Source of the DNA: Eledone cirrhosa
Taxonomy: Eukaryota
Direction: 5' to 3'
Length of the DNA: 64,000 nucleotides
Assembly (NCBI GenBank): GCA_964016885.1
Contig: OZ024761.1
Location: 8,556,001-8,620,000 of the forward strand
The notes below the pieces were generated by a model. It made no database searches. It saw only the letters and a program-made list of their open reading frames with translations, and was not told the DNA's origin. Within the stretch, counting starts at the first letter, position 1; each line of letters starts with the position of its first letter. The position numbers and the translations under genes are program-made. Below are positions 4,601 through 57,876 of this stretch, piece by piece.

Positions 4601-5343
4601 GTCACTGTCAGATATTTGGGAGGTAGTTAGCAACAGTGTCTCATAGAATCTGTCTTTTATAGTGCCGGGCAGTCCGGATTGGGGTGCGTACGCAGATATT
4701 ACTGTCACCGTAGTTCTATTGAGGACAAGTCTTATTTTAATTATTCTGTCGTTCACTCTATTTACGTCTATTATCTNNNNNNNNNNNNNNNNNNNNNNNN
4801 NNNNNNNNNNNNNNNNNNNNNNNNNNNNNNNNNNNNNNNNNNNNNNNNNNNNNNNNNNNNNNNNNNNNNNNNNNNNNNNNNNNNNNNNNNNNNNNNNNNN
4901 NNNNNNNNNNNNNNNNNNNNNNNNNNNNNNNNNNNNNNNNNNNNNNNNNNNNNNNNNNNNNNNNNNNNNNNNNNNNGTCTTATTTTAATTATTCTGTCGT
5001 TCACTCTATTTACGTCTATTATCTTATCTGCCCACTTTTCTGCTACATGATTCCTACTCCACCCAGCCCATCGTCGTTTCCCACCCAGAAAAGCTTATAA
5101 CATCGTTTTTTACCCTCAATGAATCTAGCAGACCCACCCCTCCACCTGGTCTCTTGAATACAACAAACATCGACCTCCTTACGTTCAAGCATTTCTACAA
5201 CCTCGTTAGAGCGACCCTTTAGGGTGCCTACATTTATGGTACCAACTCTGAAGTTTTGGGTTGCGTTTGGAGGGTGGGGGTGGTGGGGGGCGGGAGGAGA
5301 TAGGGTTATGTTAGCCATCCGCGGACGAAACAAAGAGGAGTGC
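1608..5343 (-). mobile_element. Near full-length RTE-clade LINE (family a): AP endonuclease + reverse transcriptase, long 3' UTR, (ATG)n tail
   Basis: Minus-strand ORF pieces give APE motifs ([32 protein letters not shown]) and RT motifs (QFGF, AFVDLEKAFDRV, GVHQGSVLSPLLF, LLYADD, FRYLG). They also give a PHD-like Cys cluster and [10 protein letters not shown] / GRPRKTW. (TCA)n at 1608-1625 is the 3' tail. Both ends abut (TA)n. Confidence 0.95.
4777..4976. other. Assembly gap (200 N) with duplicated flanks
   Basis: About 48 bp (gtcttattttaattattctgtcg...ttatct) is repeated on both sides of the N run. Confidence 0.95.
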
Positions 5344-12004: not shown

Positions 12005-13243
12005 TCATCATCATCATCATCATCATCCGTTTAACGTCCGTGTTCCACGCTTGCATGGTTTGGACGGGGGTAGTCCCACTTGAGGCAAGAGTGATTGTTT
12101 GCTCGCATAGGACTGTCTGGCAGGTTTTCTACAGTTGGATGCCCTTCCTAACACCAACCACATTTACAGTGTGGGTCTGGGAGGTTTTACCGTGTTGCCT
12201 ACACGGCCACATTACAGCGTGGACTGTGTGTTTTTTTGTCGTGACACCTACACGATCTCATTTGTTTCGGCCTCGATGGCGCGGCACCACATACCTTTAC
12301 ATAGAACGGGGTGGTGTGGATCGGGTGGGGGTGGGGGTGGTGGGACGGGGTGTATTTTGTTAGAGATGCCTACTGGCTGGAGTAGGTTTTACTATATATT
12401 TAGGTAAGGCGGGTCTTCTCTGTTACTGAGTACCGCCAAAGGTCTCGGTCCAGTGACATTGTCTTGGAGAGGTGTAAGTGTGTGATGTCGGAGTTTATCA
12501 GCTCGTCCCAGGTTTTTCTAGGTCTGCCTATTCCCGTGACTACCGTCTATCTTTATTGCCCTGCACTTTGTTATACAGCTATCGACTTTCATGCGCATCA
12601 CGTGTCCATACCAACGTAGCCTTCTCTCGAGTAAACAACATCTGATCCCTCTTATCTCTAATTTATTCCTTAGTTCGTTTATGCTTTGCCGTTCACGTAT
12701 ATTACTGTTACACATCCAGCGGAGCATGCAAGCTTCGTTCCTCTCTAGTCTGCGTATATCCTCTGCACACAATGCCCAGGTCTCACTGCCATGCAGCATT
12801 GCTGTTCGTATGCAGGCATCGTACAACCTGCCTTTCATTTTTAGTGAGAACCCTTTAGCAGCTAATAGTGGTATAAGCTCTCTGAACTTTTTCCAACCAG
12901 TTCTGACTCTAGCTACAGTACTTTCAGAGCACCCTCCCCCACTGCTGATTTTATCGCCCAGGTAACGGAAGCTGTCCACTATTTCTATAGAACCCTCTGC
13001 GCAATTGAAAGAGCTAGTAGTTTGTGGGCACTTGCTGCTACTTATTGCACCAGAGCACCGGCCACATGTAAAATCTATGTTCTTAGTTAGCTTACCTGTG
13101 ATCCCACTACATCTTTTATGCACCCATACTTTGCATTTAGGACATAAAATGGAGTTTCTACCTACGCCTTTCCTACACACCGAGCACGACCATTTCTCCG
13201 AAGGGACCGCCGCCTTGTTTTCTTTCCTACAAACTAGTACTTT
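12005..13243 (-). mobile_element. 5'-truncated RTE family a copy in (TA)n
   Basis: Nearly identical to the 3' part of the 1608-5343 copy; ORF 12518-13180; (TCA)n tail. Confidence 0.95.
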
Positions 13244-13251
13244 GTATATGT

Positions 13252-13449
<198 letters not shown>

Positions 13450-13456
13450 GTATATA

Positions 13457-13561
<105 letters not shown>

Positions 13562-13574
13562 GTGTGTGTATATA

Positions 13575-15300
13575 TCATCATCATCACCGTTTTACGTTCC
13601 TTCTTCCACGCTAGCTTGGGTTAGACGGGTTGTCCTGTTGTGGGCAGTGTCCGGTCGGTTGACCTTGTCTTGTTCATACGGGAACTGATTCTGGGTGCTT
13701 TTTGTCCATGGCGCCTACACGTCTACTTTACAGTGTGGGCTGGGTGCTTTTTTGCCGTGGCACCTCCACGACCTCTTTGCAGTGGGAGGGTGTGGGGGCA
13801 TATTGTCTATATGCTTCAGCTTCGGCGTGTACCCGTGGGGAGTAGGGTCTTCTGTATTACTTTGTGACACCAAAGGTCACGGTCGTGTGTCATCGCCTTT
13901 GAGAGGTGTTTTTGGCTAAGGTCGGCTTTTATCATGTCATCCCAGGTCTTCTTGGGTCTCCCCACTCTGCGGTTTCCATCGACTTCTAGTACTCTGCACC
14001 TTTTTATGCAGCTGTCATCCTTCATGCGCATCATATGTCCATACCAACGCAACCTCCTCTCCTGCCCACATTTGATTCCTCTTATGCTCAATCTCTCTCT
14101 CAATTCATTTATGCTTTGCCGTTTGTGTATATTACTATTACACATCCATCGGAGCATGCAGGCTTCATTTCTTTCTAATCTACACAAGTCTTCCACTGTC
14201 AGCGTCCAGGTCTCACTACCATGTAACATTGCTGTTTGTATACACGCACCATACAGTCTGCCTTTCATTTTGAGGGAAAAGTCTTTTGCAGCTAGCAGTG
14301 TTAGTAACTCCCTGAACTTCTTCCATCCCATTCTTACCCTAGCATGGCCTCAGCCGGATGGCTGGAGCAGGTAAAAGAGTAGTTATTGTACTTTCCAAAC
14401 ACCCACCTCCGCTGCTAATTCGGTCACCTAGGTAGCAGAAGCTGTCTACTGTTTCTACAGAGCGCTCCCAGAGATTGGTGGTACTTGTTTCCTGCTTACT
14501 GTCCCAGCACAGCTGCTACATATGAAGCCTACATTCTTAGTTAATCTTCCTGAGATGCTGCTACATCTCTTGTGTACCCATTGTTTGCATTTGGAGCAGA
14601 GAATGGAGTTCCTACCTTTCCTACATACTGAGCAAGGCCATTTCCCTGAGGGGATCTGGGTTGTGTTTTCTCGTCTACTTACAAGAACCTTAGTCTTTGT
14701 CAGATTGACTTCTTCTCTAGTTCTACCATAGATTCAGCTGTAAGTGCGAGGTCATCTGCATACAGGAGTTCCCATGGGCATCCGGTCTTAAACTCCTCCG
14801 TTATTGCCTGCAGGACTATGATGAACAGGAGAAGACTAAGAACAGAGCCCTGGTGGACCCCAACCTGTACGCTAAATTCCTCGTTATACTCATTGCTAAT
14901 CCTAACTTTGCTGACTGCTCCCCTATACATGGCTTGTACAGCTTTCACAAGCCATTCATCTACTCCTAGTTTTCTAAGAGCCCACCAGATTATAGCACGT
15001 GGAACTCTGTCAAAGGCTTTCTTGAGATCGACAAATGCCAGGTAGAGTGGCTTACTTTTAGCTAGGTACTTTTCCTGTAACTGTCTCACAAGGAAGAGGG
15101 CATCAGTGGTGCCTCTTCCTGGCACAAACCCAAATTGCATCTCATCTAGTTTCACCCAGTCCCTAATCAACTGTGCTATAACTCTTTTTGTTACTTCCAT
15201 GACCTGGTCCATCAGCTTTATACCTCTATAGTTTCCTCTATCTAGTGCATCACCTTTAGCTTTGTAGCAGTTGACAATGATGCTACTGCACCAATCCTTT

Positions 15301-15302
<2 letters not shown>
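13575..15302 (-). mobile_element. 5'-truncated RTE family b copy (different 3' UTR), flanked by (TA)n
   Basis: ORFs 14700-15212 (RT core, YADD) and 13816-14331 (C-terminus); (TCA)n tail. Confidence 0.93.
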
Positions 15303-15361
<59 letters not shown>

Positions 15362-15370
15362 ATATATATA

Positions 15371-16041
15371 TGTGTTTTTTTGTCGTGACACCTACACGAC
15401 CTCATTTATTTAGGACTGGATATTGTGGTACCAACATAGCTGTCGAAAGGAGTGGTGTAGATGACGGTGGGGGTAGGGTTAGTGGGATAGGGGTGTATTT
15501 TGGTTAAGAGGTGGCTACTGACTGTAGGTTTCACTTTGTACTTAGGCAAGGCAGGTCTTCTGTATTACTACGTAGCGCCAAAGATCTCGGTCCAGTGACA
15601 TTGTCTTGGAGAGGTAAGTGTGTGAGGTCAGATTTTATCGAGTTTTTCTGTGTCTGCCTACTCCGTAGCTACCGTCTATTTTGATCGCCCTGCACTTTTT
15701 TTATACAGCTGTCGTCTTTCATGAGCATCACGTGACCATACCAACGTAGCCTTCTCTCTCGAGTAAACAGCATCTGACCCCTCTTATTCCTAATTTCTCA
15801 CTTAGTTCATTTATGCTTTGCCGTTCGCATATATTACTATTACACATGCAACGGAGCATGAAAGCTTCGTTTCTCATCAGTCTGCATAGATCCTCTGCAC
15901 ACAAGGCCCATGTCTCACTGCCATGTAACATTGGTGTTCGTATGCAGGCATCATACAGCCTGCCTTTTATTTTTAAAGAGAAACCTTTAGCAGCCAATAG
16001 TGGTATAAGTCCTCTGAAATTTTTCCATCCCGTTCGGACTC
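15371..16041 (-). mobile_element. Diverged RTE family a-like 3' fragment
   Basis: ORF 15728-15997 matches the RT C-terminus; partial 3' UTR. Confidence 0.88.
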
Positions 16042-18247: not shown

Positions 18248-18249
<2 letters not shown>

Positions 18250-18441
18250 ATATAGAAATGGCTTCTACAGGACTAGAACTGTTTCATTTGAAGGAAATCA
18301 CCAGGAGGGCCCTGATGACTTCCTTTGAATGAAACAGTTCTAGTTCTGTAGGAACTATTTCTATATTAAATATTGTATATACTGTTATGTATTGAGTACC
18401 TTACTTACTGTGGTTACCCCCCGATTGAACCCGGGATACTC
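18248..18441 (+). mobile_element. Fold-back element family B with hammerhead core and unpaired tail
   Basis: Imperfect inverted arms 18248-18305 / 18311-18368. CTGATGA-cttcctttgaat-GAAACAG-ttctagtt-CTGTA. Tail contains TATTGAGTAC; (TA)n on both sides. Confidence 0.8.
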
Positions 18442-18800
18442 ATATATATATATGTATATATATTAATGTGGTTCATAAAACCCCCCAAACCAAGACAGCT
18501 AGGGGTTATTCTTCCTTTCCTTTACTCCGTTTTCGTAATCGATATGAAGTATATGAGTAAACATTTACGGTAAAAATGCAAGATCAATGAGCTTACTATA
18601 TATTCGGAGTTTTTTTGTTTTTTTTTCCAGTTTTTTGTCTTTCTTTTACCGAAAAGATAAGCAATGAAAGGTGAATGTACAAATAATAGAGAATCAACGC
18701 CACTACTAGAAGAAACATCGAGCTTTCGTTTCAATCATGGAATTTGTACACTGAAATATAAGGATGTATAGCGGCATCTTCTGAATATATGTGTATGTTG

Positions 18801-18887
<87 letters not shown>

Positions 18888-19076
18888 CACACACATATAT
18901 ACACATATATATACACATATATACACATATATATATATATATATATACACATATATATATATACATATATATACTCATTGTGTTAATGTTTGAACATTTT
19001 GTGTACACTACTATTTAAAACAATCCCTCGTCGTTGTTGTTGTTGTTGTTGGTGTGTGTGCGTGCGCGTATGTATG

Positions 19077-19113
<37 letters not shown>

Positions 19114-19143
19114 GTATATGTATGTGTGTGTGTGTATGTACGT

Positions 19144-19257
19144 AAAATGTTCGAACATTAACTGCATTAGCACTCAATACATGTGAGCAGTATGAAATTT
19201 ATTTTTCTGAAGAAAAAGGTAGCAGAAATTTTGAAGTTTCGGGGAATGCCTCTTCTG
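19144..19257 (-). mobile_element. Decayed PLE-terminus-like unit
   Basis: Minus strand reads cagaaga-gg-cattcc-cc-GAAAC ... AATAAA ... TATTGAGTGC, between microsatellites. Confidence 0.5.
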
Positions 19258-19273
19258 TGTGTGTGTGTGTGTT

Positions 19274-19318
<45 letters not shown>

Positions 19319-19849
19319 AAACACACATATACATATATATATATATATATATAATATATATATTTATATATATATATATATGCTCGTTTTGCTTTGTGGT
19401 AGATGAAATATCCTAAGATTTTGTATAGGAAATGTGTAGTACAACAGCTCAAATATGACACGTGCAAGTGGAATGTGGTAAAAGCAAAAAAAAAAGGGAT
19501 ACAAAATGAGAATTTGGAGCTTTGTTTAGTCTGGAATAATTGGGATGAGGGCTTAGAATGGAATAAAAATATAATTTCAAAATAAATAAATGAGAAATTA
19601 TCTCGTTTAGAGCTACTCCAGCTACAACTACCACCACCTCAACCTCCGGCATTTCAAGTGTTTTAGAAAGCAAAGTATTGATGACAGGACACAAAGTCGG
19701 GGATCAAAGGTTGGCCCCTCACTTTATGACCATCATGGCAATAAAAATCCTGAGAACATATTTTCGAGATATACACACATACATACATATATATACATAT
19801 ATATGTGTGTATATGTACCTATATACATAAACACAACACAACTACTTAC

Positions 19850-19903
19850 TGCTTTATCATCCAGATCCTCCCAACTGTCCAGTACTTCACCGTCGTCAGC
19901 CAT
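19850..19903 (-). CDS. Probable first coding exon (MADDGEVLDSWEDLDDKA) of an SZRD1-like SUZ RNA-binding domain protein
   Basis: ATG followed by 18 codons ending at a perfect GTAAGT donor (19849-19844). The peptide resembles the SZRD1 N-terminus as recalled (MEDEEVAESWEE...). Downstream exons were not identified in the window. Confidence 0.55.
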
Positions 19904-20403
19904 AGTTCAATGTAACTGGAGTCAACTGGATGTTTCGAATGCTAGAAACATTGGCTTAATAATCTTCTCAGACAACAACAAAAAAAGTATAATGTTTTTA
20001 AAAAAAAGAGATGAGAGAGAGAGAGAGAGAAAGAAAGAGACAACTCCTCTACAATTTTTCACGGTGGAAAAACGTAAAGTAGTTGTTTCTTTTGAAAAAT
20101 ATTTCTGTCTTAAAACAAAGGACCGATAACCTAAGACAGACAAATTACCTCCCCTGATAAATTAAAATAGCACCTGCCGGGACCTTGCTTGCAAAAAAAT
20201 ATATATATGGTTCACTGCCTTGGTGTCTTTTATTTATTTGTTTTTTCATCTTCTATTTTGGTAGTTATTCCAGCATTTAATGTTTTCCCTCCCATCAAAC
20301 ATTTAAAAAAATTGCTTTCATTTTGGAAATAACAGCCGAGAACATCTGTAGTCTTTAAAAAATTTCGGATTTAACAAAAAAGTTAAAAGCTTTATCTTTC
20401 TCC

Positions 20404-20469
<66 letters not shown>

Positions 20470-20637
20470 GTATATATATATAAATAGAGAGAGTATATAT
20501 ATATATGTATGTATATATAGTATATATATATATAGAGAGAGAGGGAGAGTATATATATATATATTTATATAGAGTATATATATTATGTATGTATGTATGT
20601 ATGTATATATATATATATATATATAAAACAAAGCAAT

Positions 20638-20820
20638 TGTGGTAACGAACCAGATGGACCATAACGCACCAGAGTACTCAATACTTAGGGTAATGGAGTG
20701 GGAAATAGGAAAAAGTATGACCCCGACGGCAGAGCTCAAGCCGTTTCCACGGCTATTTCTGGACTATAATAGCCGTCGAAACGGCTTGAGCTCTGCCGTC
20801 GGGGTCATACTTTTTCCTAT
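20638..20820 (-). mobile_element. Fold-back element family A, copy 2
   Basis: Arms 20705-20757 / 20768-20820 (1 mismatch); same unpaired tail as copy 1; ends at CCTAT-(AT)n. Confidence 0.85.
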
Positions 20821-20852
20821 ATATATATATGTGTGTGTGTGTGTATATATAA

Positions 20853-20909
<57 letters not shown>

Positions 20910-20910
<1 letters not shown>

Positions 20911-21135
20911 GAAGTATTTCCGTAGTAAGGGTAAAGGAAAGGAGAGTGCTCTATGTAAGCTACAGAGCTATTTAATTATGTAATAAACAACATAAGACAA
21001 TTATTCCATTTACCAAAGGTTTCACGAATTTAATATATTAAATTTTCATTCTGATGAGCGATTTCAGATGTCTGTCTTCGTGAAACCTTTGGTAAATGGA
21101 ATAATTCTCTTATGTTGTTTATTACATAATTAAAT
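20910..21135. mobile_element. Fold-back element family C, copy 1
   Basis: Arms 20970-21028 / 21078-21135; tail 20910-20969 is homologous to the reverse complement of 24770-24832; in (TA)n. Confidence 0.85.
21044..21101 (+). ncRNA. Type I hammerhead ribozyme motif
   Basis: Stem I tttcatt/aatggaa; core CTGATGA; stem II closed by gcga/tcgt; GAAA; stem III acc-ttt-ggt; GTA cleavage triplet. Confidence 0.75.
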
Positions 21136-21178
21136 ATATATATATATAGGATAAATATATATATATATAGAGAGAGAG

Positions 21179-21235
<57 letters not shown>

Positions 21236-21269
21236 ATATAGAGGTTACGCATATATTTATATTTTCTCT

Positions 21270-21378
21270 CAGTCTCTGAGGATATGATGAAGCTAACATG
21301 TATTTTAAATTGAGTGGCACTACTTTCAGTGTTTAGCAGTTTTTAGACACCTCTATCAGTGAAACAATTGTCAGACTG
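21270..21378 (+). ncRNA. Type I hammerhead ribozyme motif with long stem II region
   Basis: Stem I cagtct/agactg (6/6); CTGAGGA; ~78-nt stem II region with weak pairing; GAAAC-AATT-GTC with palindromic stem III; AATAAA directly downstream. Confidence 0.7.
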
Positions 21379-21482
21379 TAAATAAATCTCCTTTTTTGTA
21401 CTGTTGACCATGTTATTCTCCACTTTTTCAATTTTACATATATATATGTGTGTGTGTGTGTGCGTGTGTGTATATATATATA

Positions 21483-21666
21483 ACGAAGGAAGTGTGGTAA
21501 GGAACCAAGTGGACCATAATGCACCAGAGTACTCGATACTTAGGGTAGTAGAGTGGGTAATAGGAAAGGAGTCAGGACCCCGACGGCTGAGCTCCTCCCG
21601 TTTTGACCGCTAGATCTGGCTGTCAAAATGGCCGGAGCTCAGCCGTCGGGGTCATGACTCTATTCC

Positions 21667-21669
<3 letters not shown>
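21483..21669 (-). mobile_element. Fold-back element family A, copy 3 (more diverged)
   Basis: Imperfect arms from 21560 to 21669; same tail; ends at CCTAT before (TA)n. Confidence 0.82.
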
Positions 21670-21744
<75 letters not shown>

Positions 21745-21776
21745 TGCACACACACACACACATATATATATATAAA

Positions 21777-21916
21777 TGTGGTTGGCGTTAGGAAGGGCAT
21801 CCAGCCAGAGAAAACGTCAGAAACACCCCTATTCGAGCGAGACACGGTCACCCAACGCAACTTGCCTTAAAATAGGACCCATCTAACCCATGCTGGTGTG
21901 GAAGACAGACGTTAAT

Positions 21917-21950
<34 letters not shown>

Positions 21951-21990
21951 AATGATGATTGTGATGGTGATGGTGATGATGATGATGATG
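21777..21990 (+). mobile_element. RTE/SINE-type 3' end with long (GAT)n tail
   Basis: GGTTGGCGTTAGGAAGGGCATCCAGC module, then ctaacccatgctggtgtggaa and (TGA)n. Confidence 0.7.
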
Positions 21991-22156
21991 CTTATCTAGG
22001 GCAGGTAAAATTCTAGAAATCCATGGACGAGCTCTCTCCAGCGGTCTCTGTCCTTCATCATCACCGCTATTCCCCGCGTCCCCACTGTATATAAATATAT
22101 ACATGCATACAAGTAAGCAGGAATGAAGTCAAGGGCGTACCATAAATGAACTTTAT

Positions 22157-22248
22157 TGCATATGACAATTGTTTTGATATCAATCAGCTCAGGATTTAAT
22201 CATAATGTTCAAGGCCTGACTCTGCACTAACATCTCATCAAAGATGCA
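22157..22248 (-). ncRNA. Degenerate type I hammerhead motif
   Basis: Minus strand: tgcatct-TTGATGA-gatgttagt...attgatatc-AAAAC-AATT-GTC-atatgca-ATAAA. Stems are intact but there are two core substitutions. Confidence 0.55.
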
Positions 22249-22286
22249 TTTGTAGGTGCCTCCATGTATATATATATATATATACA

Positions 22287-22637
22287 TGGAGGCACATGGC
22301 TTAGTGGTTACAGCATTGGCCTTGCAATCAAAAGGTTGTGAGTTCAATTCTCAGACTGGGTGATGTGTTGTTTCCTTGAGCAAGACACTTTATTTCACAT
22401 TGCTCCAGTTTACTCAGCTGTAGAAATGAGATGATAGGGACTGGGGTCCATATCATTCCACTGCAAAGTGGTCGTGGAGGTGCCACAAAAAAGCACCCAA
22501 CACTCACTGTAAATGAGGTTGGTGTTAGGAAGGGCATTCAGCTGTAGAAATCAAGCCAGAATCAGTTCCCGTCCCACCCTTGCAAGCAGGGAAAAGCGGA
22601 CGTAAAATGAAATGATGAAATGATGGTGAATGATGAT
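22287..22637 (+). mobile_element. tRNA-derived CORE/Meta-like SINE, family c-type tail
   Basis: A-box TGGCTTAGTGG, B-box GAGTTCAATTC, central domain, and CCCACCCTTGCAAGCAGGGAAAAGCGGACGTAAAATGA tail. Confidence 0.9.
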
Positions 22638-22647
22638 ATATATATCT

Positions 22648-22915
22648 ATCTAGGGCGGGTAAAATTCCCGAGATCCATGGACGAGCTCTCTCCAGTGGTC
22701 TCTGTCCCTCATTATCGCTGCCATGTCCTGTGTCTCCAACAGACCAGCGTCTGTCGTTAGGGCATCAACATATGTTAACCTTGGTCTTCCTCTTCCAGTG
22801 TGTCCATGTAGGGGCCCACAGGAGCACTGAGTGCAATGTCAACTCTGGATGTCGGTGAGCATGACCAGCTAACCTCAGTCTCCTCTGTGTCACTTTTGAG
22901 CTGATTTTGGGAGCA
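22648..22915 (-). mobile_element. 3' fragment of another non-LTR retrotransposon family (shorter copy at ~21993-22085)
   Basis: QRRLRLAGHAHRHPEL is a typical LINE RT C-terminal motif; the sequence is duplicated at 21993-22085. Confidence 0.7.
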
Positions 22916-22993
22916 TATATACATATATATGTCCCAAGGCTCTGATGCAATCAACACCATATACACAGAGCTGGCATATCTAAGAACTGACTA

Positions 22994-23049
22994 ACTGCCT
23001 GATGAGGTCATAGCCACTCAATGGCTATCATCGAAATATATATAGCAGT
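22994..23049 (+). ncRNA. Minimal type I hammerhead ribozyme motif, intact core
   Basis: Stem I actgc/gcagt; CTGATGA; stem II ggtcatagcca-ctcaa-tggctatcatc; GAAA; palindromic stem III ATATATAT; ATA cleavage triplet. Confidence 0.8.
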
Positions 23050-23102
23050 AAATACAGGATTATGAGTTCATGCAATTGACTTATATTTCGTCACTATATA
23101 TA

Positions 23103-24284
23103 TCATCATCATCATCATCATCATCAGCGTTTAACGTCCGTGTTCCACGCTTGCATGGGTTTGGACGGGGGTAGTCCCACTTGAGGCAAGAGTGATTGTC
23201 TTGCTCGCATAGGACTGTCTGGCAGGTTTTCTACAGTTGGATGCCCTTCCTAACACCAACCACATTTACAGTGTGGGTCTGGGAGGTTTTTACCGTGTTG
23301 CCTACACGGCCACATTACAGCGTGGACTGTGTGTTTTTTTGTCGTGACACCTACACGATCTCATTTGTTTCGGCCTCGATGGCGCGGCACCAACATAACT
23401 TTACATAGAACGGGGTGGTGTGGATCGGGTGGGGGTGGTGGGACGGGGTGTATTTGTTAGAGATGCCTACTGGCTGGAGTAGGTTTTACTATATATTTAG
23501 GTAAGGCGGGTCTTCTCTGTTACTGAGTACCGCCAAAGGTCTCGGTCCAGTGACATTGTCTTGGAGAGGTGTAAGTGTGTGATGTCGGAGTTTATCAGCT
23601 CGTCCCAGGTTTTTCTAGGTCTGCCTATTCCGTGACTACCGTCTATCTTTATTGCCCTGCACTTTGTTATACAGCTATCGACTTTCATGCGCATCACGTG
23701 TCCATACCAACGTAGCCTTCTCTCGAGTAAACAACATCTGATCCCTCTTATCTCTAATTTATTCCTTAGTTCGTTTATGCTTTGCCGTTCACGTATATTA
23801 CTGTTACACATCCAGCGGAGCATGCAAGCTTCGTTCCTCTCTAGTCTGCGTATATCCTCTGCACACAATGCCCAGGTCTCACTGCCATGCAGCATTGCTG
23901 TTCGTATGCAGGCGTCGTACAACCTGCCTTTCATTTTTAGTGAGAACCCTTTAGCAGCTAATAGTGGTATAAGCTCTCTGAACTTTTTCCAACCAGTTCT
24001 GACTCTAGCTACAGTACTTTCAGAGCACCCTCCCCCACTGCTGATTTTATCGCCCAGGTAACGGAAGCTGTCCACTATTTCTATAGAACCCTCTGCGCAA
24101 TTGAAAGAGCTAGTAGTTTGTGGGCACTTGCTGCTACTTATTGCACCAGAGCACCGGCCACATGTAAAATCTATGTTCTTAGTTAGCCTACCTGTGATCC
24201 CACTACATCTTTTATGCACCCATACTTTGCATTTAGGACATAAAATGGAGTTTCTACCTACGCCTTTCCTACACACCGAGCACG
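23103..24284 (-). mobile_element. 5'-truncated young RTE family a copy in (TA)n
   Basis: Uninterrupted ORF 23497-24276; nearly identical to 12005-13243. Confidence 0.95.
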
Positions 24285-24308
24285 GTATGTATGTATATAT
24301 ATATATAT

Positions 24309-24339
<31 letters not shown>

Positions 24340-24346
24340 TATTTAT

Positions 24347-24832
24347 TTATGTAATAAACAACATAGCATAATTTTTTCATTTACCAGTGGTTTCTTGAAG
24401 GCAGATGTTGTGTCTGTCTTCAGTCGTCAGAATGAATAAATAACATGGTGTTTTTATTAAATAATAAAAACACCATGTTATTTATTCATTCTGATGACTG
24501 AAGACAGACACAACATCTGCCTTCAAGAAACCCCACTGGTAAATGAAATAATTGTTTCTACTTTAGGCACAAGGCCAGCAATTACTGGTACTTTATTTTA
24601 TCGACCCCGTAAGAATGAAAGGCAAAGTCAGCCTCGGCGGGATTTAAACTCAGATGGTAAAGGGACGTAACTATGCTGGAAAGCATGGCGTCCGACCCTC
24701 TACCGATACTGCCAATCCACCACCTTTGGTAAATGAAATAATTATCTTATGTTGTTTATTACATAACTAATTAGCTCTGTAGCCTACATAGAGCACTCTT
24801 TTTTCTTGTACCTTTCCGATGGAAATACTTCA
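24347..24832. mobile_element. Fold-back element family C, copy 2: palindrome centred at ~24460 with a hammerhead on each strand, interrupted by a SINE
   Basis: Plus strand 24485-24547: ttcatt-CTGATGA-ctgaagacaga..tctgccttcaa-GAAAC-cccact-GGTA-aatgaa. The mirror copy with CTGACGA lies on the minus strand at ~24375-24435. The arm resumes after the SINE. Confidence 0.87.
24554..24726 (-). mobile_element. Nin/Deu-domain SINE with 17-bp TSD
   Basis: TSD tggtaaatgaaataatt at 24537-24553 and 24727-24743. Confidence 0.88.
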
Positions 24833-24847
24833 TTTACACACACACAC

Positions 24848-24881
<34 letters not shown>

Positions 24882-24910
24882 GTATATATATATATACATA
24901 TACATTTACA

Positions 24911-25043
24911 TTCATTTAATGACTAAGTGGTGAGCCTTGTTTAACTCTGGAGTTTCACCTGCGCACTCATCTGACAAGACTGTGAGTGTGCAGGGGAAAT
25001 GCCATCAGAGTAACAAGACTCACCAATTAACAATTAAATGAAT
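24911..25043. mobile_element. Diverged fold-back element (family D)
   Basis: Blocks pair in nested order: ttcatttaat/attaaatgaa, tggtgag/ctcacca, actctg/cagagt, tttcacctgcgcactca/tgagtgtgcaggggaaa. Confidence 0.7.
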
Positions 25044-25124
25044 ATTTAAAGTCTACTTTGGGATTGATCCCTTTTTCTCATGTCTGTCAATATATATTTT
25101 CATGTAAATGTGTTGATTTGAGTC

Positions 25125-25215
25125 CACGTGTCTGATGAGCTAATTGATGCCAAGTCAGGTCTATCACATCAATAAAGACCTAGAGCCAATCATCTGTGAA
25201 ACATATGTAATGGTT
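25125..25215 (+). ncRNA. Degenerate hammerhead motif
   Basis: CTGATGA (25132) ... GAAAC-ATAT-GTA with palindromic stem III, then AATAAA; stem I is poor. Confidence 0.45.
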
Positions 25216-25267
25216 GATAGGCAATAAAAACATTTAGTGTGAAACCATGTGGTCTCATACTTCATAT

Positions 25268-25535
25268 CATCATCACCGAGTTGTCCTGTTGTGGGTAATG
25301 TCAGGTCAGGTGACCATGTCTTGCTCATACAGGAACTGATTTTGGCTTCATTTCTACAACTGGATGCCCTTCCTAATACTAACCTCATTTACAGTGAGTA
25401 CTTGGTGCTTTTTGTCAATGTGCCTACACGACCACTTTACAGTGGGAGGGGCTCAGGACATACTGTATATATGCTTCAGCTTTGGTCTGTACCCGTGGGA
25501 AGTCGAGTCTTCTGTATTACTGTGTAATGCCAGAG
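25268..25535 (-). mobile_element. RTE family b 3' end/UTR fragment
   Basis: Homologous to 13575-13870. Confidence 0.8.
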
Positions 25536-25550
25536 ATCTCTTTATATGTA

Positions 25551-28030
25551 TCATCATCATCATCATCATCATTTTATGTCCGCTTTTCCCGCTTGCAAGG
25601 ATGGGATGGGTCCTATTCAACACAGCATCTCTCCACTCGTCACAGTCCTTCGTCATCTCCCCATGTGAACTTTAGCGATCTGAGGTGTGCTCTCACCACC
25701 TCCTCCCATGTTTTTCGTGGTCTTCCTCTACTGCATCTTCCTTCTACTGGGATAACTTGGCACTTCTTTATCCAGCGGTCATCCTCCATGCACATCACAT
25801 GTCCATACCTTCTCTCCTGCACACTACAACTTATCCCTCTTATACACAGTTTCTCTCTCAACTCATCTATGGTTGGTCGTTCACGCACATTTACACTGCA
25901 CATCCAACGGAGCATGCTTGCCTCATTTCTCTCCAGCCGTCACATATCCTCTGCAGTTGCTGCCCATGTCTCACTACCATGCAACATTGCGCATCTCACA
26001 CAGGCATCATATAACCGGCCTTTCGTACGCAGGGAGAAACCCTTCTTTGTCAGCAGAGGAAGCAGCTCCCCAAACTTCTTCCAACCTGTCCTTACACCAC
26101 CCCTCCATGCTAATCTGATCATCTAGGTACTGGAAGTTATAAACCACTTCTATAGAACCCACCTGCATTTGAAAAATATGTCTATCAATGCGACTTTTAC
26201 TGTCAACTTCCCTGTACATCTACTGCATACGTATTTCTCCCTACCTGTTAGTTTGCCTGCTATCCCACTACATCACTTGTGTACCCAAGATCTGCATTGT
26301 GTGCATTTTATAGAATTTATGCCAGTTCTGCATATCGAACATGGCCATTTCCCTGACGGAATCAGAGTTTTGTCCTCTTTTCTACTTATCAACACTTTTG
26401 CCTTAGCTAGGTTCACTCTCAGTCTTGATTCCACCTGCTGTTTCCATAGCCAGAATTTATTCTCTAGCTCCTCTACTGATTCTGCTATAAGAATCAGATC
26501 ATCAGCATAGAGAAGTTCCCATGGACAGCCAGTCTTAAACACCTCTGTTATGGCTTGAAGGACTATAATGAACAAGAGCGGACTGAGTACCGAACCCTGA
26601 TGTACTCCTACTTGTATCTAGAATTCCTCACTAAACTCCATTCCTACCCTCACTTTACTGACAGCACCCCTGCTTGCACTGTCCTCACAAGGCATTCCTC
26701 TTTACCTTTGTAGCAATTTATGAGAATACTGCTGCACCAGTTTTTGGGTATGACACCGCCATATATAGCTTGATTAATGATGCATGCAACTAGTTTAGTG
26801 CTTACTTCTCCTGATTCCTTCAGCATCTCAGCAACTATCCCTGACAGTCCAGCGGCCTTACCATTTTTCATTTTCTTAATTGCCTCTTGTACACTATATT
26901 CGTTAATCTCAATAGCTGGTCCCTCTGACGGGTTTACTGGGGGTAGTTTCTCTCTCTCCATTCGTTCTCCACATTCATCAGTCTCTCATAATGACATTTC
27001 CAGACCTCCTTTTTCTGATCATTAGTGACACTAAGTACACCAGCATCATTCCGGACACACTTATCTCAAGAACATCCTGATTTACATTGACACACTACTT
27101 TGCAATGCGGAACACTGCCCATCTCTGATCTTCCCGTCGCAGAACATTGGCAAACCTCCTACTCTCAGCCTCCCTGTGTGCTAAGTACACCTGACGTCTA
27201 GCTTCTTTCTTAGTGGCTGTGTATCCTTCTCTACTCCCACCATTTTTCCAAGCCTTCCATGCTAGTCTTTTGTCTCTAATGCCCCTATCTACCGTGCTGT
27301 TCCACCACCAGGTCACTCTCTGTCTGGTCGGAGCTCTTCTCCAGCCACAAGTTTCTTCAGTAGCCTGCAGTAAGTTGTCATGTAAAAAATTCCAGTTATC
27401 ATCTATGTCATACAATTCTAAAACATCTCCTTTTTCGTCATACTCATCTTGAAGGGCTTTCCTAAATTTATATTTTAGTGAAAGGTCTTTTAGCTTCCAG
27501 ACCTTCCTGTATGTCTCATTTGGTCTCTTGCTTACTGAGATGTCACTAACGACTGACCTATACTGTGGAGTACATTCTTCCCCGGGGTATGCCTTAGTAT
27601 TTGACACCATCTGTCTGTCTCGCTGCCTAACTAGCAAGAAGTCAATCTGGCTTATGTGCTCGCCTGATTTGTAGGTTATTAGGTGGTTGGTAGGCTTCTG
27701 GAAGTTAGTGTTGCAAATGGTTAGTGCACTTGCACCACAAAATTCAAAAAGCCTCACTCCTTTTTTTTTTAGCCATAACCATGCCAACCGTGTACCCCAG
27801 TGTATCCATCCTGGAGCTCTCCAACATGATCATTGAAGTCCCCTATTAGCATAATGATGTCTCTATCCTCAGTCATTGTGGCTGTTTCTAAAAGTTGCTC
27901 ATAAAAGCAGTCATTCTCTTCTTTACCTAGGCCTGCCTGGGGAGCAGAGGCAGAGATGATTGTCAGCAGTCTCTTGCCCACAACTAATGTAATCTTAAAT
28001 ATCCTAATACTGGCTCTAACCACCTCTATT
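25551..28030 (-). mobile_element. Older, internally deleted RTE family c LINE
   Basis: Frameshifted APE (SASAPQ, IGDFNDHVG, SQIDFLL) and RT (YADD, GRPRKTW) pieces; short 3' UTR and (ATG)n tail. Confidence 0.9.
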
Positions 28031-28387
28031 ATCTATGGATAATAGAGGTATCCATAGATACCTCTATTAGTGTTGCCTGCTAGCAATTGGTGGACAGGTC
28101 ATCATAGAATCAGTACTTAATCAGAGCTCCTGATCTTTCAGACTATCCCATGACATAACTGAAGAGATCCCTTGACCCTTTTTGACATCATTTCTAAAGA
28201 TGGATGTACTTCACATCACCAACCACCTTATATGGTCTTCTTCTTGTCATGTCCACCTTGGTGTTCCGTAGCTTTTGTAGCTTATAACTGTTGCTTGTGG
28301 TGGTGATAGGATTGTTGATCTAGTTGACCTTGTCGATCTTATCGATACTCCCAAGGCTGCGGTGTGGATGCTCTTATCCTGACCCCC

Positions 28388-29226
28388 ACCTTATATGGTG
28401 TGTTTTATTGTGGCACCTTATATGGTGTGTTTTATTGTGGCACCTTATATGGTGTGTTTTATTGTGACACCTTATATGGTGTGTTTTATTGTGGCACCTT
28501 ATATGGTGTGTCTTATTGTGGCACCTTATATGGTGTGTCTTATTGTGGCACCTTATATGGTGTGTCTTATTGTGGCACCTTATATGGTGTGTTTTATTGT
28601 GGCACCTTATATGGTGTGTTTTATTGTGGCACCTTATATGGTGTGTCTTATTGTGGCACCTTATATGGTGTGTCTTATTGTGGCACCTTATATGGTGTGT
28701 CTTATTGTGGCACCTTATATGGTGTGTTTTATTGTGGCACCTTATATGGTGTGTCTTATTGTGGCACCTTATATGGTGTGTTTTATTGTGGCACCTTATA
28801 TGGTGTGTTTTATTGTGGCACCTTATATGGTGTGTCTTATTGTGGCACCTTATATGGTGTGTCTTATTGTGGCACCTTATATGGTGTGTCTTATTGTGGC
28901 ACCTTATATGGTGTGTCTTATTGTGGCACCTTATATGGTGTGTTTTATTGTGGCACCTTATATGGTGTGTTTTATTGTGGCACCTTATATGGTGTGTTTT
29001 ATTGTGGCACCTTATATGGTGTGTTTTATTGTGGCACCTTATATGGTGTGTTTTATTGTGGCACCTTATATGGTGTGTCTTATTGTGGCACCTTATATGG
29101 TGTGTTTTATTGTGGCACCTTATATGGTGTGTTTTATTGTGGCACCTTATATGGTGTGTTTTATTGTGGCACCTTATATGGTGTGTCTTATTGTGGCACC
29201 TTATATGGTGTGTTTTATTGTGGCAC
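28388..29226. repeat. 27-bp minisatellite, ~31 copies (CACCTTATATGGTGTGTYTTATTGTGG)
   Basis: Directly visible; two unit variants (T/C). Confidence 0.97.
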
Positions 29227-29282
29227 CAGCACGAGTCAGTTTGTTGGCCACAGACTCAGCTGAAGGGTAGACTTTACACTAT

Positions 29283-30607
29283 GAGGGGTGTTGTTGGGTG
29301 AGGATATGATAGGGGGGGGGTGAGAATATGATGGGGAGGGGTGTTGTAGGGTGAGAATATGATATGGGGGGGGTTGCAGGGTGAGAATATGATAGGGGAG
29401 GGGTGTTGTAGGGTGAGAATATGATAGGGGAGGGGTGTTGTAGGGTGAGAATATGATGGGGGAGGGGTGTTGTAGGGTGAGAATATATGGGGGGGGTTGT
29501 AGGGTGAGGATATGGGGGGAGGGGTGTTATAGGGTGAGAATATGATGGGGGAGGGGTGTTGTAGGGTGAGAATATGATGGGGGAGGAGTGTTGTAGGGTG
29601 AGAATATGATGGGGGAGGGGTGTTGTAGGGTGAGAATATGATGGGTGAGGATATGATGGGGGAGGGGTGTTGTAGGGTGAGAATATGATGGGTGAGGATA
29701 TGATGGGGGAGGGGTGTTGTAGGGTGAGAATATGATGGGGGAGGGGTGTTGTAGGGTGAGAATATGATATGGGGGGGGGGGTTGTAGGGTGAGAATATGA
29801 TGGGGGAGGGGTGTTGTAGGGTGAGAATATGTTGGGGAGGGGTGTTGTAGGGTGAGAATATGTTGGGGAGGGGTGTTGTAGGGTGAGAATATGTTGGGAG
29901 GGGTGTTGTAGGGTGAGAATATGTTGGGGAGGGGTGTTGTAGGGTGAGAATATGATGGGGGAGGAGTGTTGTAGGGTGAGAATATGATGGGGGAGGATAT
30001 GATGGGGGAGGGGTGTTGTAGGGTGAGAATATGATGGGTGAGGATATGATGGGGGAGGGGTGTTGTAGGGTGAGAATATGATGGGTGAGGATATGATGGG
30101 GGAGGGGTGTTGTAGGGTGAGAATATGATGGGTGAGGATATGATGGGGGAGGGGTGTTGTAGGGTGAGAATATGATGGGGGAGGATATGATGGGGGAGGG
30201 GTGTTGTAGGGTGAGAATATGATGGGTGAGGATATGATGGGGGAGGGGTGTTGTAGGGTGAGAATATGATGGGGGAGGGGTGTTGTAGGGTGAGAATATG
30301 ATATGGGGGGGGGGGGTTGTAGGGTGAGAATATGATGGGGGAGGGGTGTTGTAGGGTGAGAATATGATGGGGGAGGGGTGTTGTAGGGTGAGAATATGAT
30401 TGGGGAAGGGTGTTGTAGGGTGAGAATATATTGGGAGGGGGTTGTAGGGTGAGAATATATGGGGGGGGGGTTGTAGGGTGAGAATATGTTGGGGAGGGGT
30501 GTTGTAGGGTGAGAATATGATGGGGGAGGGGTATTGTAGGGTGAGAATATGATGGGGGAGGGGTGTTGTAGGGTGAGAATATGATTGGGGAAGGGTGTTG
30601 TAGGGTG
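29283..30607. repeat. G-rich ~32-bp minisatellite (GGGTGAGAATATGATGGGGGAGGGGTGTTGTA)
   Basis: Directly visible, with half-unit variants. Confidence 0.95.
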
Positions 30608-31050
30608 GGGGGAAGTGACAAGAGGTGTGTAGGTGTGGGGGGGGAAGTGACAAGAGGTGTGGAGGTGTGGGGGAAGTGACAAGAGGTGTGGAGGTGTGGG
30701 GGAAGTGACAAGAGGTGTGGAGGTGTGGGGGAAGTGACAAGAGGTGTGGAGGTGTGGGGGAAGTGACAAGAGGTGTGGAGGAAGTGACAAGAGGTGTGGA
30801 GGTGTGGGGGAAGTGACAAGAGGTGTGGAGGTGTGGGGGAAGTGACAAGAGGTGTGGAGGTGTGGGGGAAGTGATAAGAGGTGTGGAGGTGTGGGGGAAG
30901 TGATAAGAGGTGTGTAGGTGTGGGGAAAGTGACAAGCGGTGTGTAGGCGTGGGGGAGGTGACAAGAGGCGTGTAGGTGTGGGGGAAGTGACAAGAGGTGT
31001 GTTGGTGTGGGGGAAGTGACAAGAGGTGTGAGGTGTGGGGGAAGTGACAA
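30608..31050. repeat. G-rich ~29-bp minisatellite (GTGTGGGGGAAGTGACAAGAGGTGTGGAG)
   Basis: Directly visible. Confidence 0.95.
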
Positions 31051-31259
31051 GTTTGATGTCTTGAGTATATAAAACACACATGGAGTGTTCAGGTGGAGAA
31101 GAGAAGGGTTGAGAAACATATGTCAGAGATGTATGACAGGTATGGTGGTGTTTGAGATGGTGAGGAGATCTGGGGTAGAATAGGAGGTGTCTACCAGGAT
31201 GCTGAGAGTCATTTCTAAGAAGGATGCTCAGTTCATATTTCTATCCTGGCAGGTAAGTT

Positions 31260-35499: not shown

Positions 35500-36690
35500 C
35501 ATAAACAGGCAACTACAAAATGGAAGCTTATAGGTAACTCCGGAACCCTCTCTTCTACTACCTCAATGTCACCAATCCCACTCCTCAGTACCAGTAACAA
35601 GTCAAATCTACTATACACCAGCTCATCACCTTCCTCTCTTCTTCCCCCACCCCCCTCGGCTTCCATCCTCATCATCCACACTCCAGGGACTTCTACTTCC
35701 TCCCCAAATTACACAAGCCTGACAACCCCATCGTCTTAGCGTGTAATTGCCCCACTGAACTTGTTTCAGCCTTTCTTGATATCGTCTTCTTCCCTCTGGT
35801 AGCTACCTTACCATCTCTTGACTCCCTTCATTTTCCCACCTGGCTCCCCGTCCTCAACATCCCCTATAAACTGTCATCCCCCATTCCGAAGGTCTCCTGG
35901 CCCTGCAACACTTCCTTAACCAAGTTGGTCCTCTCCATCAACTGTTTCTCCTTCTCGAGTGAGATTTACCAACAGACGACGGGGCTGGCCATGGATACAA
36001 GAATGGGCTCCCAGTTACGCCAACTTATTTCTTGGCTATGTTGAGGCTCAGATCTTTTCACAATACTCTGGCCCCACCCCTGGGTTTGTACAGTCGGGTC
36101 CGTACATCGACGACTGTTTTGACACCACGTGTCTCACCCGAGCCCAGCTCGACCTCTTTTTTGTTCTTTCTTCTGCTCCTTCCACCCCGCCCTCCATTTC
36201 ACCACCCCTATATCTCCACTTCTTCAGTTAACTTCCTAGATATCTCTGTAACCATTCACCCTTCCACAAGACAATTCTCCGTCTTTTCCACCCCCTACAG
36301 TCTGATCCCTTCACCTCATCCATTTTCTCCCCTACCTTCATTCGTGTTCAGAACCTTCTCACCCACAACACCAATACTCGACCCCCCCCCCCCCCAACCC
36401 TGTTGCCATACATGCAGCTTTATCTCCCACACCGCCAACCTTTTCCGTCTCGATGACCAGTCCTCCCAGGTTAGGGACTCCTTCAGCTGCACCTCCACCA
36501 GCCTTGTTTATGGACTCCGGTGTACTCTGTGCTGAGCTATCTACCTTGGTCAAACTGGCCGACAGATTAACTGAACACCTTTCGGACATCCGAGTCAGCA
36601 ACCCAATTCCAATCCCCTACCTCAGTGTCTTCGGGCTTACACATTGTGCGTGACCCTCCGACTCATGTTGGCAGAGAGAACAGCAACTTA
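35500..36690 (+). mobile_element. Decayed Penelope-like element, Neptune-type (RT, Cys linker, GIY-YIG endonuclease)
   Basis: Frameshifted motifs FYFLPKLHKPDNP, ACNCPTELVSAFLD, PSYANLFLGYVE, YIDD, VNFLDISV, PCCHTC, FSCTSTSLVYGLRCTLC, IYLGQTG, RLTEHLSDIR. Confidence 0.85.
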
Positions 36691-48106: not shown

Positions 48107-48238
48107 ATGAAGATATATATTACATCAAAGTGAGACTAACGATTTTAAGAGGGAGAAGGAGAAGAAAGTAGAAGATGAAGACGAAGAAGAAGAAGAAGAC
48201 GAAAATGAAAAAGAAGACAAAGGTAGTTTTGGCATTAC

Positions 48239-53941: not shown

Positions 53942-53994
<53 letters not shown>

Positions 53995-54725
53995 CGACGC
54001 AAAGTTGGAAATGGTTCGGATTCCTGCAAGTTTTACAGAGGCCAGTGGTTCCTGGAAATATTTTGGCGACGATGGAGTTGTGACAACATCGATCTCGGAT
54101 TCTTCACTGTCGCCCTCGCACTCACCTTCCTCTCCGACATCCACATCTTCATCATTATCATCATCATCTTTATCATCAGTAGCAGCGGCAGTCGTGGCTA
54201 GGGAGAATTGACTACCATTATCGTGATTCTCAAGCATCTCGCTGTCTCTGTGATTGCCGCCACCGTCATCAATGCCACCGATTCTCAATTCCTCGTCAAT
54301 GAGGGATTCCTGCAAACTGCCGCTATCCTTTCCAATGGGGCCGGCAGCTGCTACTGTGCTGCCACGAGCTGCCTCAGCGATCCTCCCACCGGAGATATGG
54401 AAGGTCTTATAATGCCTCATGTCAACCACATCGTCCATCGTTACAACATCGACTGGTGAAGACATGTCCTTTCTTCTACTACTACTACTACTACAACTAC
54501 CACCACCACCACCACCACTACTACTATTACTCCTTGCCAATGTCAGTCTCTCAGTTGAGTAGTGATCCGATAAGTGACCACCACCACTACTACTACTACT
54601 ACCACCACAACTGCTATGTATCTTAATCGGGTCCTTTTCATCCAGTAGTTCATACAAAGGCATAAAACCCTGCTGCCTGTATTTCTCAATAGATTTTTTT
54701 TTCAACATTACGTCATCCGTAACAT
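48239..54725 (-). CDS. ~6.5-kb coding exon of a multi-C2H2 zinc-finger protein (~18 dispersed fingers, low-complexity linkers)
   Basis: 2157-aa ORF with repeated CxxC-x12-H-x3-5-H motifs. The apparent stop lies inside the donor AG|GTAATG at 48238. Likely acceptor ttttttctgtcaagtctaag at 54726, or start at ATG 54708. Confidence 0.93.
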
Positions 54726-55351
54726 CTTAGACTTGACAGAAAAAATATGTCACCAAAGAGATTATTAATATCATTATTATTGTTATTATTAAAGCACCAG
54801 TAATGCACTGGGGTAATTGCTGGCTTTGTGCCAAATGTAGAAACAATTATTATTATTATTACTGGTAGTGTGCATTCATTTTTCCATGACTAGACAGAGC
54901 AGTGATGAATACATAGTTTCTAAGTTGCATGAGCCAGTATTTGTTGGGTCCTCCGCTAGTTCTGACAATAGGTATTCCAATTGTTTTAGCAATGGGACAG
55001 CTTGCTCATGAAATCAACGTGCCAAGTGGCTGAGTATTCCACAGACACCACACGTGTATCTTTAACATATTTCTCAAGGAGATGATTCAGTGCAACAAGG
55101 GGGGATAGGATAGCCTTTCCAATTACAGGTTCAACTCATAATTTTTTTTCTTTCTTTCAGTTGTAAATGTGAAATAATGTGTCTTGCTCAAAGACACAAT
55201 ATGCTGCCACAAACAGACAAATAGACAGACAGACAGACTCAGCTTACTAGTCCAGGAGAACAGGAATCACTGTAGTAACAGTGTAAAAAATAAAGAGAAG
55301 TGTGATATGACATGGTTCTGTTTTGAAGGTTTGGTGGGAGAGACGCAAGAG

Positions 55352-56990: not shown

Positions 56991-57040
56991 TGTGTGTGTA
57001 TGCGTGCATGTATGTATATATATATATATATATATATATA

Positions 57041-57320
57041 GTTATACTTGGGGAGGGTCATACTTGTGCAATATTGCCAGAATTAATAACAGAACACACT
57101 CACTGTTTGGTTGGTTTTCGCTTCTCGCTTCTGTGTCTTTTATATCGGTAATCTAAGTTAGATTACCGATATAAAAGACACAGAAGCGAGAAGCGAAAAC
57201 CAACCAAACAGTGAGTGTGTTCCGTTATTAATTCTGGCAATATTACACAAATATGACCCTCCCCAAGTATAACAATATTTGTTTCGACACACGATTTCAT
57301 ATAAAAAAACCTCGCAAAAC
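57041..57320. mobile_element. Fold-back element: 116-bp arms with a 1-nt loop plus ~47-bp unpaired tail, in (TA)n
   Basis: 57041-57156 versus 57158-57273, three mismatches. Confidence 0.9.
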
Positions 57321-57741
57321 TATATATATATATATAAGCAAAGGGATATATATAATATTATAACTCATGATTTAGCTAAATATTTTTTTAATTCTGGAAT
57401 CATATTCCACCATTCCAACAAACTTTTAATTCTTAACATTTCTATCTTTTTAAATTCACGTACATTGTAGTAATATAAATACAAGCTTTTCTTTCTTTCT
57501 CCTTCTTCTTTCTATATATACATATATATATCCTAATAATTATTTAAATCTACCTAGTGTCTAGAAATAACGTTTTTTTCAGCCCTAGCCTCAACCTCAT
57601 TTGCATATTCATCAAAATAATTTGAAATATTTGTTTTTTCCTCTCTTCCCCTTTGTCCCTTTTTCCTTTTACTAACCAGGTTAAACTTGAACCGTGAAGG
57701 TCTCATTCCTGGATATGTCAATATTTATAAAACAAACTTTG

Positions 57742-57802: not shown

Positions 57803-57845
57803 AATATGATTTTATAAATATAGTCTCCATTTATTAATATCATTG

Positions 57846-57876
<31 letters not shown>

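Follow-up and report, generated by a model that had tools for sequence, protein, structure and literature searches.

The stretch analysed here, called the window throughout, comprises 64 kb of the Eledone cirrhosa genome (contig OZ024761.1, positions 8,556,001 to 8,620,000, of the 3.0-Gb assembly GCA_964016885.1). It is rich in microsatellites and carries short, non-coding elements of several families, probably of Penelope-like origin, which bear folds of the type I hammerhead ribozyme and include a 7-kb nest (positions 18,248 to 25,215), hereafter the region. The families were lettered by the position of the hammerhead core: E at 18312, A at 21051, D at 21276, G at 22241 on the minus strand, B at 22999, A2 at 24491 and at 24430 on the minus strand, F at 25132 and C at 57750. 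Their copies in the window are as follows.

18250–18440, plus strand: family E, an inverted arm followed by a direct 3' end with tail (from sequence, alignment and fold); core at 18312 and predicted cut after 18350; stem I lacks its 5' strand, which was lost at the junction.
20912–21133, plus strand: family A, a tail of about 60 bp and an inverted arm (to about 21030), then the direct 3' end; intact hammerhead at 21044–21101, predicted cut after 21094, (TA)n at both flanks.
21243–21437, plus strand: family D, truncated 3' end; hammerhead at 21270–21378 with a long stem II and a palindromic CAATTG in stem III, predicted cut after 21372.
22110–22262, minus strand: family G, degenerate copy with two core changes; core at 22241, cut position at 22164.
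22931–23098, plus strand: family B, truncated 3' end; hammerhead at 22994–23049 with TATATA in stem III, predicted cut after 23044.
24345–24832, plus strand: subfamily A2, two-armed unit with a tail ending at about 24832; inverted arm 24345–24460 (core at 24430, minus strand, predicted cut at 24382) and direct arm from 24461 (core at 24491, predicted cut at 24541, minimal fold 24485–24547).
24554–24726, minus strand: putative tRNA-like short interspersed nuclear element (SINE), read from the sequence inside the A2 direct arm and so labelled from A-box and B-box-like motifs judged by eye; a 17-bp duplication (24537–24553, 24727–24743) flanks the insertion.
25103–25270, plus strand: family F, old diverged copy; core at 25132, CATATG in stem III, weak stem I.
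57321–57846, plus strand: family C, truncated 3' end of about 525 bp; hammerhead at 57742–57802, predicted cut after 57794.

Hammerhead folds were counted with a strict type I descriptor and compared with sequence shuffled in 500-bp blocks (60 shuffles for the window, 200 for the region), and also with a relaxed descriptor, which was drawn up only after the family folds had been viewed. The strict descriptor was passed by three sites in the window (21051, 22999 and 57750), where shuffled sequence gave 0.07 on average and never more than 1; the relaxed one was passed by six (21051, 21276, 22999, 24491, 24430 on the minus strand, and 57750). Within the region the counts were two and five, respectively, and none in 200 shuffles by either descriptor, so that the expectation of folds above a shuffled background was borne out. 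Three damaged sites in the window failed the relaxed descriptor, namely that of E, which lacks the 5' strand of stem I, that of G, whose core reads TTGATGA and AAAA, and that of F, with a stem I of just 3 bp; other genome copies of each of these families have intact cores. Under constrained folding, the minimal folds of A and of both A2 copies lay at most 1 kcal/mol from the optimum, those of B and D within 4–5 kcal/mol of it and that of C within 8.5, and all five cleavage positions of the original prediction (21094, 21372, 23044, 24541 and 57794) were reproduced. AATAAA occurs downstream of the cut site at 21372, 57794, 25209 and 22164, and reading of the sequence found none at 21094, 23044, 24541 and 18350. 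Rfam models run over 20950–25300 returned no family at gathering score, and no hammerhead was among the 150 of 320 Rfam matches listed for the window; microRNA matches in the window were rejected, as they were below threshold and corresponded to palindromes and microsatellites. The hammerhead folds in the window are genuine, and cleavage is predicted from the fold alone.

To place these counts in the context of the genome, the relaxed descriptor was applied to 40 stretches of 10 kb (400 kb) spread evenly over the chromosomes, in which 25 folds were found as opposed to 0–2 per round in ten rounds of shuffling; 12 of the 25 come from three tandem groups, and chance may explain a few. This density, approximately one fold per 16 kb, corresponds to the order of 100,000–200,000 folds genome-wide, a rough figure given the 400-kb sample. 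The window, with six folds in 64 kb and about four expected, is therefore ordinary, whereas the nest, with five in 7 kb, is about ten times denser than average, keeping in mind that two of its five folds belong to a single insertion and that the stretch was picked post hoc. Dense clustering, as originally described, is thus true of the 7-kb nest only and not of the window as a whole.

For each of families A to G, the best 40 candidates of a genome search (2269 candidates for A, 467 for B, 1437 for C, 1879 for D, 2493 for E, 531 for F and 550 for G) were scored and 30 loci, including the window's own copy, were fetched; the short queries and the restriction to 40 candidates bias this sample toward short copies. 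Family A has constant outer ends, (TA)3 being present at the left in 28 and at the right in 27 of the 30 loci, and in the middle the inverted 3' end with its 60-bp tail joins the direct 3' end at a point differing in nearly every copy. B, C and D likewise have fixed 3' ends, with the tail present or absent, and 5' extents ranging from zero to more than 1 kb. (TA)4 starting within 15 nt of the 3' end was found in 30 of 30 loci of B, 21 of D, 16 of C and 10 of G (background 7.7%), a count that is meaningless for E and F, in which the offset used lay before the true end; within 120 nt it was found in 28 of 30 for C, 21 for D, 19 for E, 17 for G and 14 for F (background 18.9%). The preference for insertion into (TA)n is therefore strong in A, B, C and D and weaker in E, F and G. 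The younger families show a 3' end anchored in (TA)n and a 5' end that changes from copy to copy and is frequently fused to an inverted copy. A second copy on the same strand within 1 kb was rare (three of 30 loci for A, none for B, three for C, two for D, one for E, none for F or G, some loci overlapping). The cores are conserved across families with differing stems. Compensatory changes, which the original prediction had called for, are seen in stem I of the E lineage, where double changes at two pairs keep the pairing between subfamilies; in the A lineage, a sister family resembles A and A2 in stems I and III and has a different stem II that is nonetheless paired in each. Pseudo-long terminal repeats (pseudo-LTRs) in partial tandems, an inverted 5'-truncated copy and a one-sided tail are all present, and this is the architecture of Penelope-like elements (PMC8557442).

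Extension of the flanks, the check originally suggested, joined longer copies of B, C, D and the A sister to Penelope-like open reading frames (ORFs). For D, a long copy has a GIY-YIG-type frame 1 kb upstream of its end, and a reading from reverse transcriptase (RT) to endonuclease was obtained; with this endonuclease as the query, 23 of 30 loci (one being the query's own) had a same-strand D end within 1.5 kb downstream, and 11 of 30 had an inverted D copy upstream. With the upstream untranslated region (UTR) of B as the query, a match to a Hydra-type thumb or endonuclease lay 1.1–1.6 kb upstream in 13 of 30 loci. For C, locus L297 holds an endonuclease 1216 bp upstream of the end, and L152 and L297 share 1613 bp running into the end of L297. 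In the A lineage, an ORF fragment beside an A-type end led to a young full-length family, the sister of A and A2. In five loci, selected from 150 matches because their open frames were the longest (L381–L385), an ORF of 714–715 aa is followed by an A-type hammerhead end in 5/5 and preceded by such an end, in part or whole, in 4/5, the upstream tail passing directly into the 5' UTR. This ORF encodes RT and then GIY-YIG endonuclease in one frame upstream of the end, an arrangement of which the endonuclease part was seen for B and C, and one copy of A proper aligned to the 3' UTR of the sister over 384 columns at 67%. The same 3' UTR contains long microsatellites and, a few hundred bases past the stop codon, a second hammerhead-like copy (L382:4109–5990; also L381 and L383–L385), which is likely inactive because G occupies the cut position in the copies read. 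A number of neighbouring endonuclease matches were set aside: those lying close to E and G in L225 are part of a different element, which carries a hammerhead itself, and those of other families near C (L284, L311, L324) and B (L339, L074), as well as those near E (nine loci, scattered distances), were dismissed as chance neighbours.

With respect to the clade of these elements, the A-lineage ORF of L382 carries the RWK, DKT, YRDD, CxCx5C, CxxC and CxH motifs and lacks both the CX2-5CxxC linker and CCHH, which speaks against the Neptune clade for the A lineage. A CxCx5C-type linker is common to the A sister, B and D and, by reading of the sequence, C. RWK, DKT, the CxCx5C linker and the lack of CCHH are among the features of the Hydra clade, nearly all families of which combine insertion into (TA)n with canonical hammerheads; one of them, Hydra-1_Obim of Octopus bimaculoides, is listed in the supplement with a (TA)n preference and a hammerhead (PMC8557442). 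A search with the A-lineage ORF gives 1474 relatives with E-values of 1e-10 or lower, and among the 120 of these listed nearly all are unnamed, about 700 aa long and 41–58% identical. A Pfam search of the genome for GIY-YIG domains returned mostly Neptune-type and some Penelope-type domains, and none of the 30 + 40 loci so obtained was tied to families A–G by a constant distance; one of them by coincidence contained family C together with that family's own endonuclease. Three of the loci examined (L274, L276 and L277) are Neptune-type Penelope-like elements with open frames of 938, 1096 and 636 aa, and the family of the last has a small hammerhead of its own about 390 bp past the endonuclease. 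Within the window, a broken Neptune-type GIY-YIG remnant lies at 36404–36620, with RT-like text upstream at about 35600–36040; no Hydra-type ORF was found in the window itself.

The analysis shows 3' ends that are fixed, 5' ends that vary, inverted arms with a tail, joins to ORFs in B, C, D and the A sister, and the Hydra motifs. From these observations we consider it highly probable that the window copies derive from the 3' ends (pseudo-LTRs) of several Penelope-like families, likely all of the Hydra clade, and reside in (TA)n in 5'-truncated and often inverted form. Several results weigh against this interpretation. The assignment to the Hydra clade, which we regard as likely, is made from motifs and from a 25% match of the A-lineage RT to Neptune-type ORFs of the same genome (E = 1e-6); Pfam and PDB searches with the Hydra-type ORF returned no significant match, and RWK and DKT were seen in the A-lineage ORF only, most B, C and D loci not extending that far. 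The link to an ORF is weak for G, for which faint endonuclease remnants were found (L316, E = 0.007 and 0.002; L315, a match of 15–16 aa) at two loci sharing 902 bp, and it was not reached for E and F, whose extensions (L386 and L387 for E, L319 and L320 for F) contained no same-strand ORF. For A proper, 20 additional copies were examined, and none had a same-strand ORF of its own within about 2.9 kb; the upstream sequence shared among the 17 scored copies is at most 233 bp. In addition, ribozyme activity may be low because several base pairs adjacent to the core are non-canonical (G-U, U-U, C-A). Among the sequencing runs listed as containing family B, none was an RNA run.

The short shared upstream of A proper, together with the many candidates found for A, E and F and the lack of an ORF of their own, could also be explained if A proper, E, F and perhaps G were non-autonomous mini-elements, spreading as short ribozyme-cut RNAs by means of a Hydra element's enzymes instead of arising as single truncations of a parent, and non-autonomous derivatives of Penelope-like elements have indeed been described (MRC1, PMC8557442; preprint 10.64898/2026.07.22.740005). 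We nevertheless regard this as unlikely: the 5' junctions differ in nearly every copy, a sister subfamily of E shares about 870 bp of upstream sequence at two loci, the short queries and best-40 scoring favour the finding of short copies, and the ribozyme is predicted to be buried in inverted units. More specifically, A proper, E and F might be freed Hydra pseudo-LTRs which were cut by the hammerhead, circularised and copied into (TA)n by the enzymes of the partner; this proposal, to which we likewise assign only a small probability, would place them, as dispersed elements, between Penelope ends and tandem retrozymes, in a genome whose hammerheads number on the order of 100,000.

In size and in their type I fold the elements are also compatible with non-LTR retrozymes, whose defining features are tandem units and circular RNA (PMC7229834; preprint 10.64898/2026.07.22.740005) and which would here be expressed as circular RNA from tandem units of 150–450 bp, and tandem hammerhead arrays do occur elsewhere in the genome. 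One array is retrozyme-like (L417:1–3728, on G000:C11 near 15.0 Mb), with 7.7 copies, at 99% identity, of a 482-bp unit that contains (TA)n internally as well as a type I hammerhead, and has solitary relatives in L397 and L411; a second tandem family, of approximately 525-bp units, was seen in L403:6638–7750 (three cores) and L397:6464–7050 (two cores), with a single core in L406. These arrays are, however, formed by other families, whereas for A–G same-strand neighbours within 1 kb were confined to the 0–3 of 30 loci given above, and the inverted arrangement and the ORF joins speak against tandem units, so that the retrozyme reading is very improbable and already largely refuted. Finally, it could be argued that the folds are chance matches in AT-rich or palindromic DNA, or miniature inverted-repeat transposable elements (MITEs) with incidental cores, as the Rfam hammerhead models stay below threshold, three sites fail the descriptor, and A, A2 and E are MITE-like hairpins. 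The near absence of folds in shuffled sequence and the conservation of cores across families with differing stems refute this reading, to which we give practically no credence; moreover, the hairpin centre shifts from copy to copy and one arm is tailed, unlike fixed terminal repeats. Thus, of the two options left by the original prediction, termini of several (TA)n-favouring Penelope-like families are upheld, while stand-alone retrozyme-like RNAs are unsupported because the 5' ends vary, ORFs are joined and same-strand neighbours are rare. Its description of the elements needs amendment in part: there are several families, yet the copies at 21051 and 24491/24430 are sister subfamilies and not unrelated; the copy at 57750 exceeds the stated 100–300 bp; (TA)n flanks are enriched across families, with the copy at 25132 having no (TA)n border here; and the statement that several are followed by AATAAA holds for four of the sites and not for the other four.

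Penelope-like elements insert by a GIY-YIG endonuclease nick and target-primed reverse transcription (PMC8557442), and we propose that the copies in the window arose as 3' ends of Hydra-type parents in this manner. The RT and GIY-YIG endonuclease of the parents would insert the copies, the endonuclease nicking (TA)n; reverse transcription would start at one of two fixed end points and usually halt after no more than a few hundred bases, the inverted arm being left by another event on the opposite strand. The hammerhead would serve the full-length parent, tandem or read-through RNA being cut to unit length. For metazoan Penelope hammerheads, a role in processing precursor RNA, perhaps to circles, has been proposed (PMC4209133). 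Such hammerheads have low activity and likely act as dimers (PMC4209133); here, cleavage might proceed as a monomer in the A lineage, whose stem III has 3 bp, and the families with a palindromic stem III (B, C, D, F and G) would likely act as dimers. Most insertions would stop early, leaving short copies that are in all likelihood dead by-products. For the inverted units (A, A2 both ways, E), four folds were computed, in which the hammerhead is predicted to lie 41–88 kcal/mol above the hairpin; read-through RNA is predicted to form a long hairpin burying the ribozyme. Insertions pass through the cut site and end about 40–110 nt past it, as would be expected from an uncut linear template as well as from a ligated circle.

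The arrangement of hammerhead-bearing Penelope-like ends in (TA)n is a known and ordinary one; the families are new, the kind of element is not. As had been anticipated for this outcome, the annotation stands and the novelty falls, since hammerheads and (TA)n preference have been published for the Hydra clade (PMC8557442). Like the elements described here, the members of that clade (Craig et al. 2021, PMC8557442) have a single ORF of RT and C-terminal GIY-YIG with RWK, DKT and CxCx5C and without CCHH, a canonical 3' hammerhead, a preference for (TA)n, partial tandems, an inverted 5'-truncated copy and a one-sided tail. They differ in the tail, which is 30–40 bp there and about 60 bp in A, and in length, as 3' UTRs of about 0.8–1.8 kb or more make the present elements longer than the Hydra norm of less than 3 kb. 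At least four distinct families (33–45% aa identity over matched parts) occur in this one genome, in contrast to the one octopus family of that supplement, Hydra-1_Obim, whose listed hammerhead is, by eye, unlike all of A–G. Metazoan Penelope hammerheads (Cervera and de la Peña 2014, PMC4209133) are, as here, counted in thousands, mostly single and of many families, with close opposite-strand pairs, short or palindromic stems III and an extra base after the core, and the single motifs were ascribed to truncated elements; in contrast to those, stem II is long in D and F (about 60–80 nt), and several families close stem II by G-U or U-U, not G-C. Non-LTR retrozymes (Cervera and de la Peña 2020, PMC7229834; preprint 10.64898/2026.07.22.740005) are similarly short, non-coding, equipped with a type I hammerhead and related to pseudo-LTRs, whereas the window families are dispersed, variably truncated and inverted. 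A study of Penelope-like families in Octopus vulgaris does not contain the word ribozyme in its main text (PMC13282606), and our literature search, with most subscription papers and Repbase beyond reach, found no paper devoted to octopus hammerheads or to many Hydra families in one mollusc genome.

The chief value of these findings lies in annotation. The Hydra clade, which has received little study, is expanded in this genome to several families, and ends of this kind supply hammerheads at about one per 16 kb, the ends escaping Rfam (in the window) and the tested ORFs escaping Pfam. Moreover, the copies at L381–L385 are young and full-length and keep intact ORFs and two hammerheads; they provide a natural setting in which to study the role of the Penelope hammerhead and the origin of the inverted arm and tail.

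Other features of the window include two copies, at 20625–20815 and 21480–21665, of a tail-plus-inverted-repeat form in (TA)n without a hammerhead core, which is common at other loci and is likely the end of another Penelope-like family. A long near-perfect palindrome with a one-sided tail, also in (TA)n, without a hammerhead and with copies at other loci, occupies 57040–57310. Many RT-coding fragments of long interspersed nuclear elements, which we take to be RTE-like, lie at 1959–5050, 12518–16000, 23497–24280, 25676–27830 and 60229–60867, several ending in (CAT)n. Neighbouring minisatellite arrays with periods of 27, 32 and 29 bp are found at 28387–31051. On the minus strand, 48235–54726 is taken up by a single 2163-aa open frame that encodes numerous C2H2-like zinc-finger motifs and is likely an exon of a host gene.

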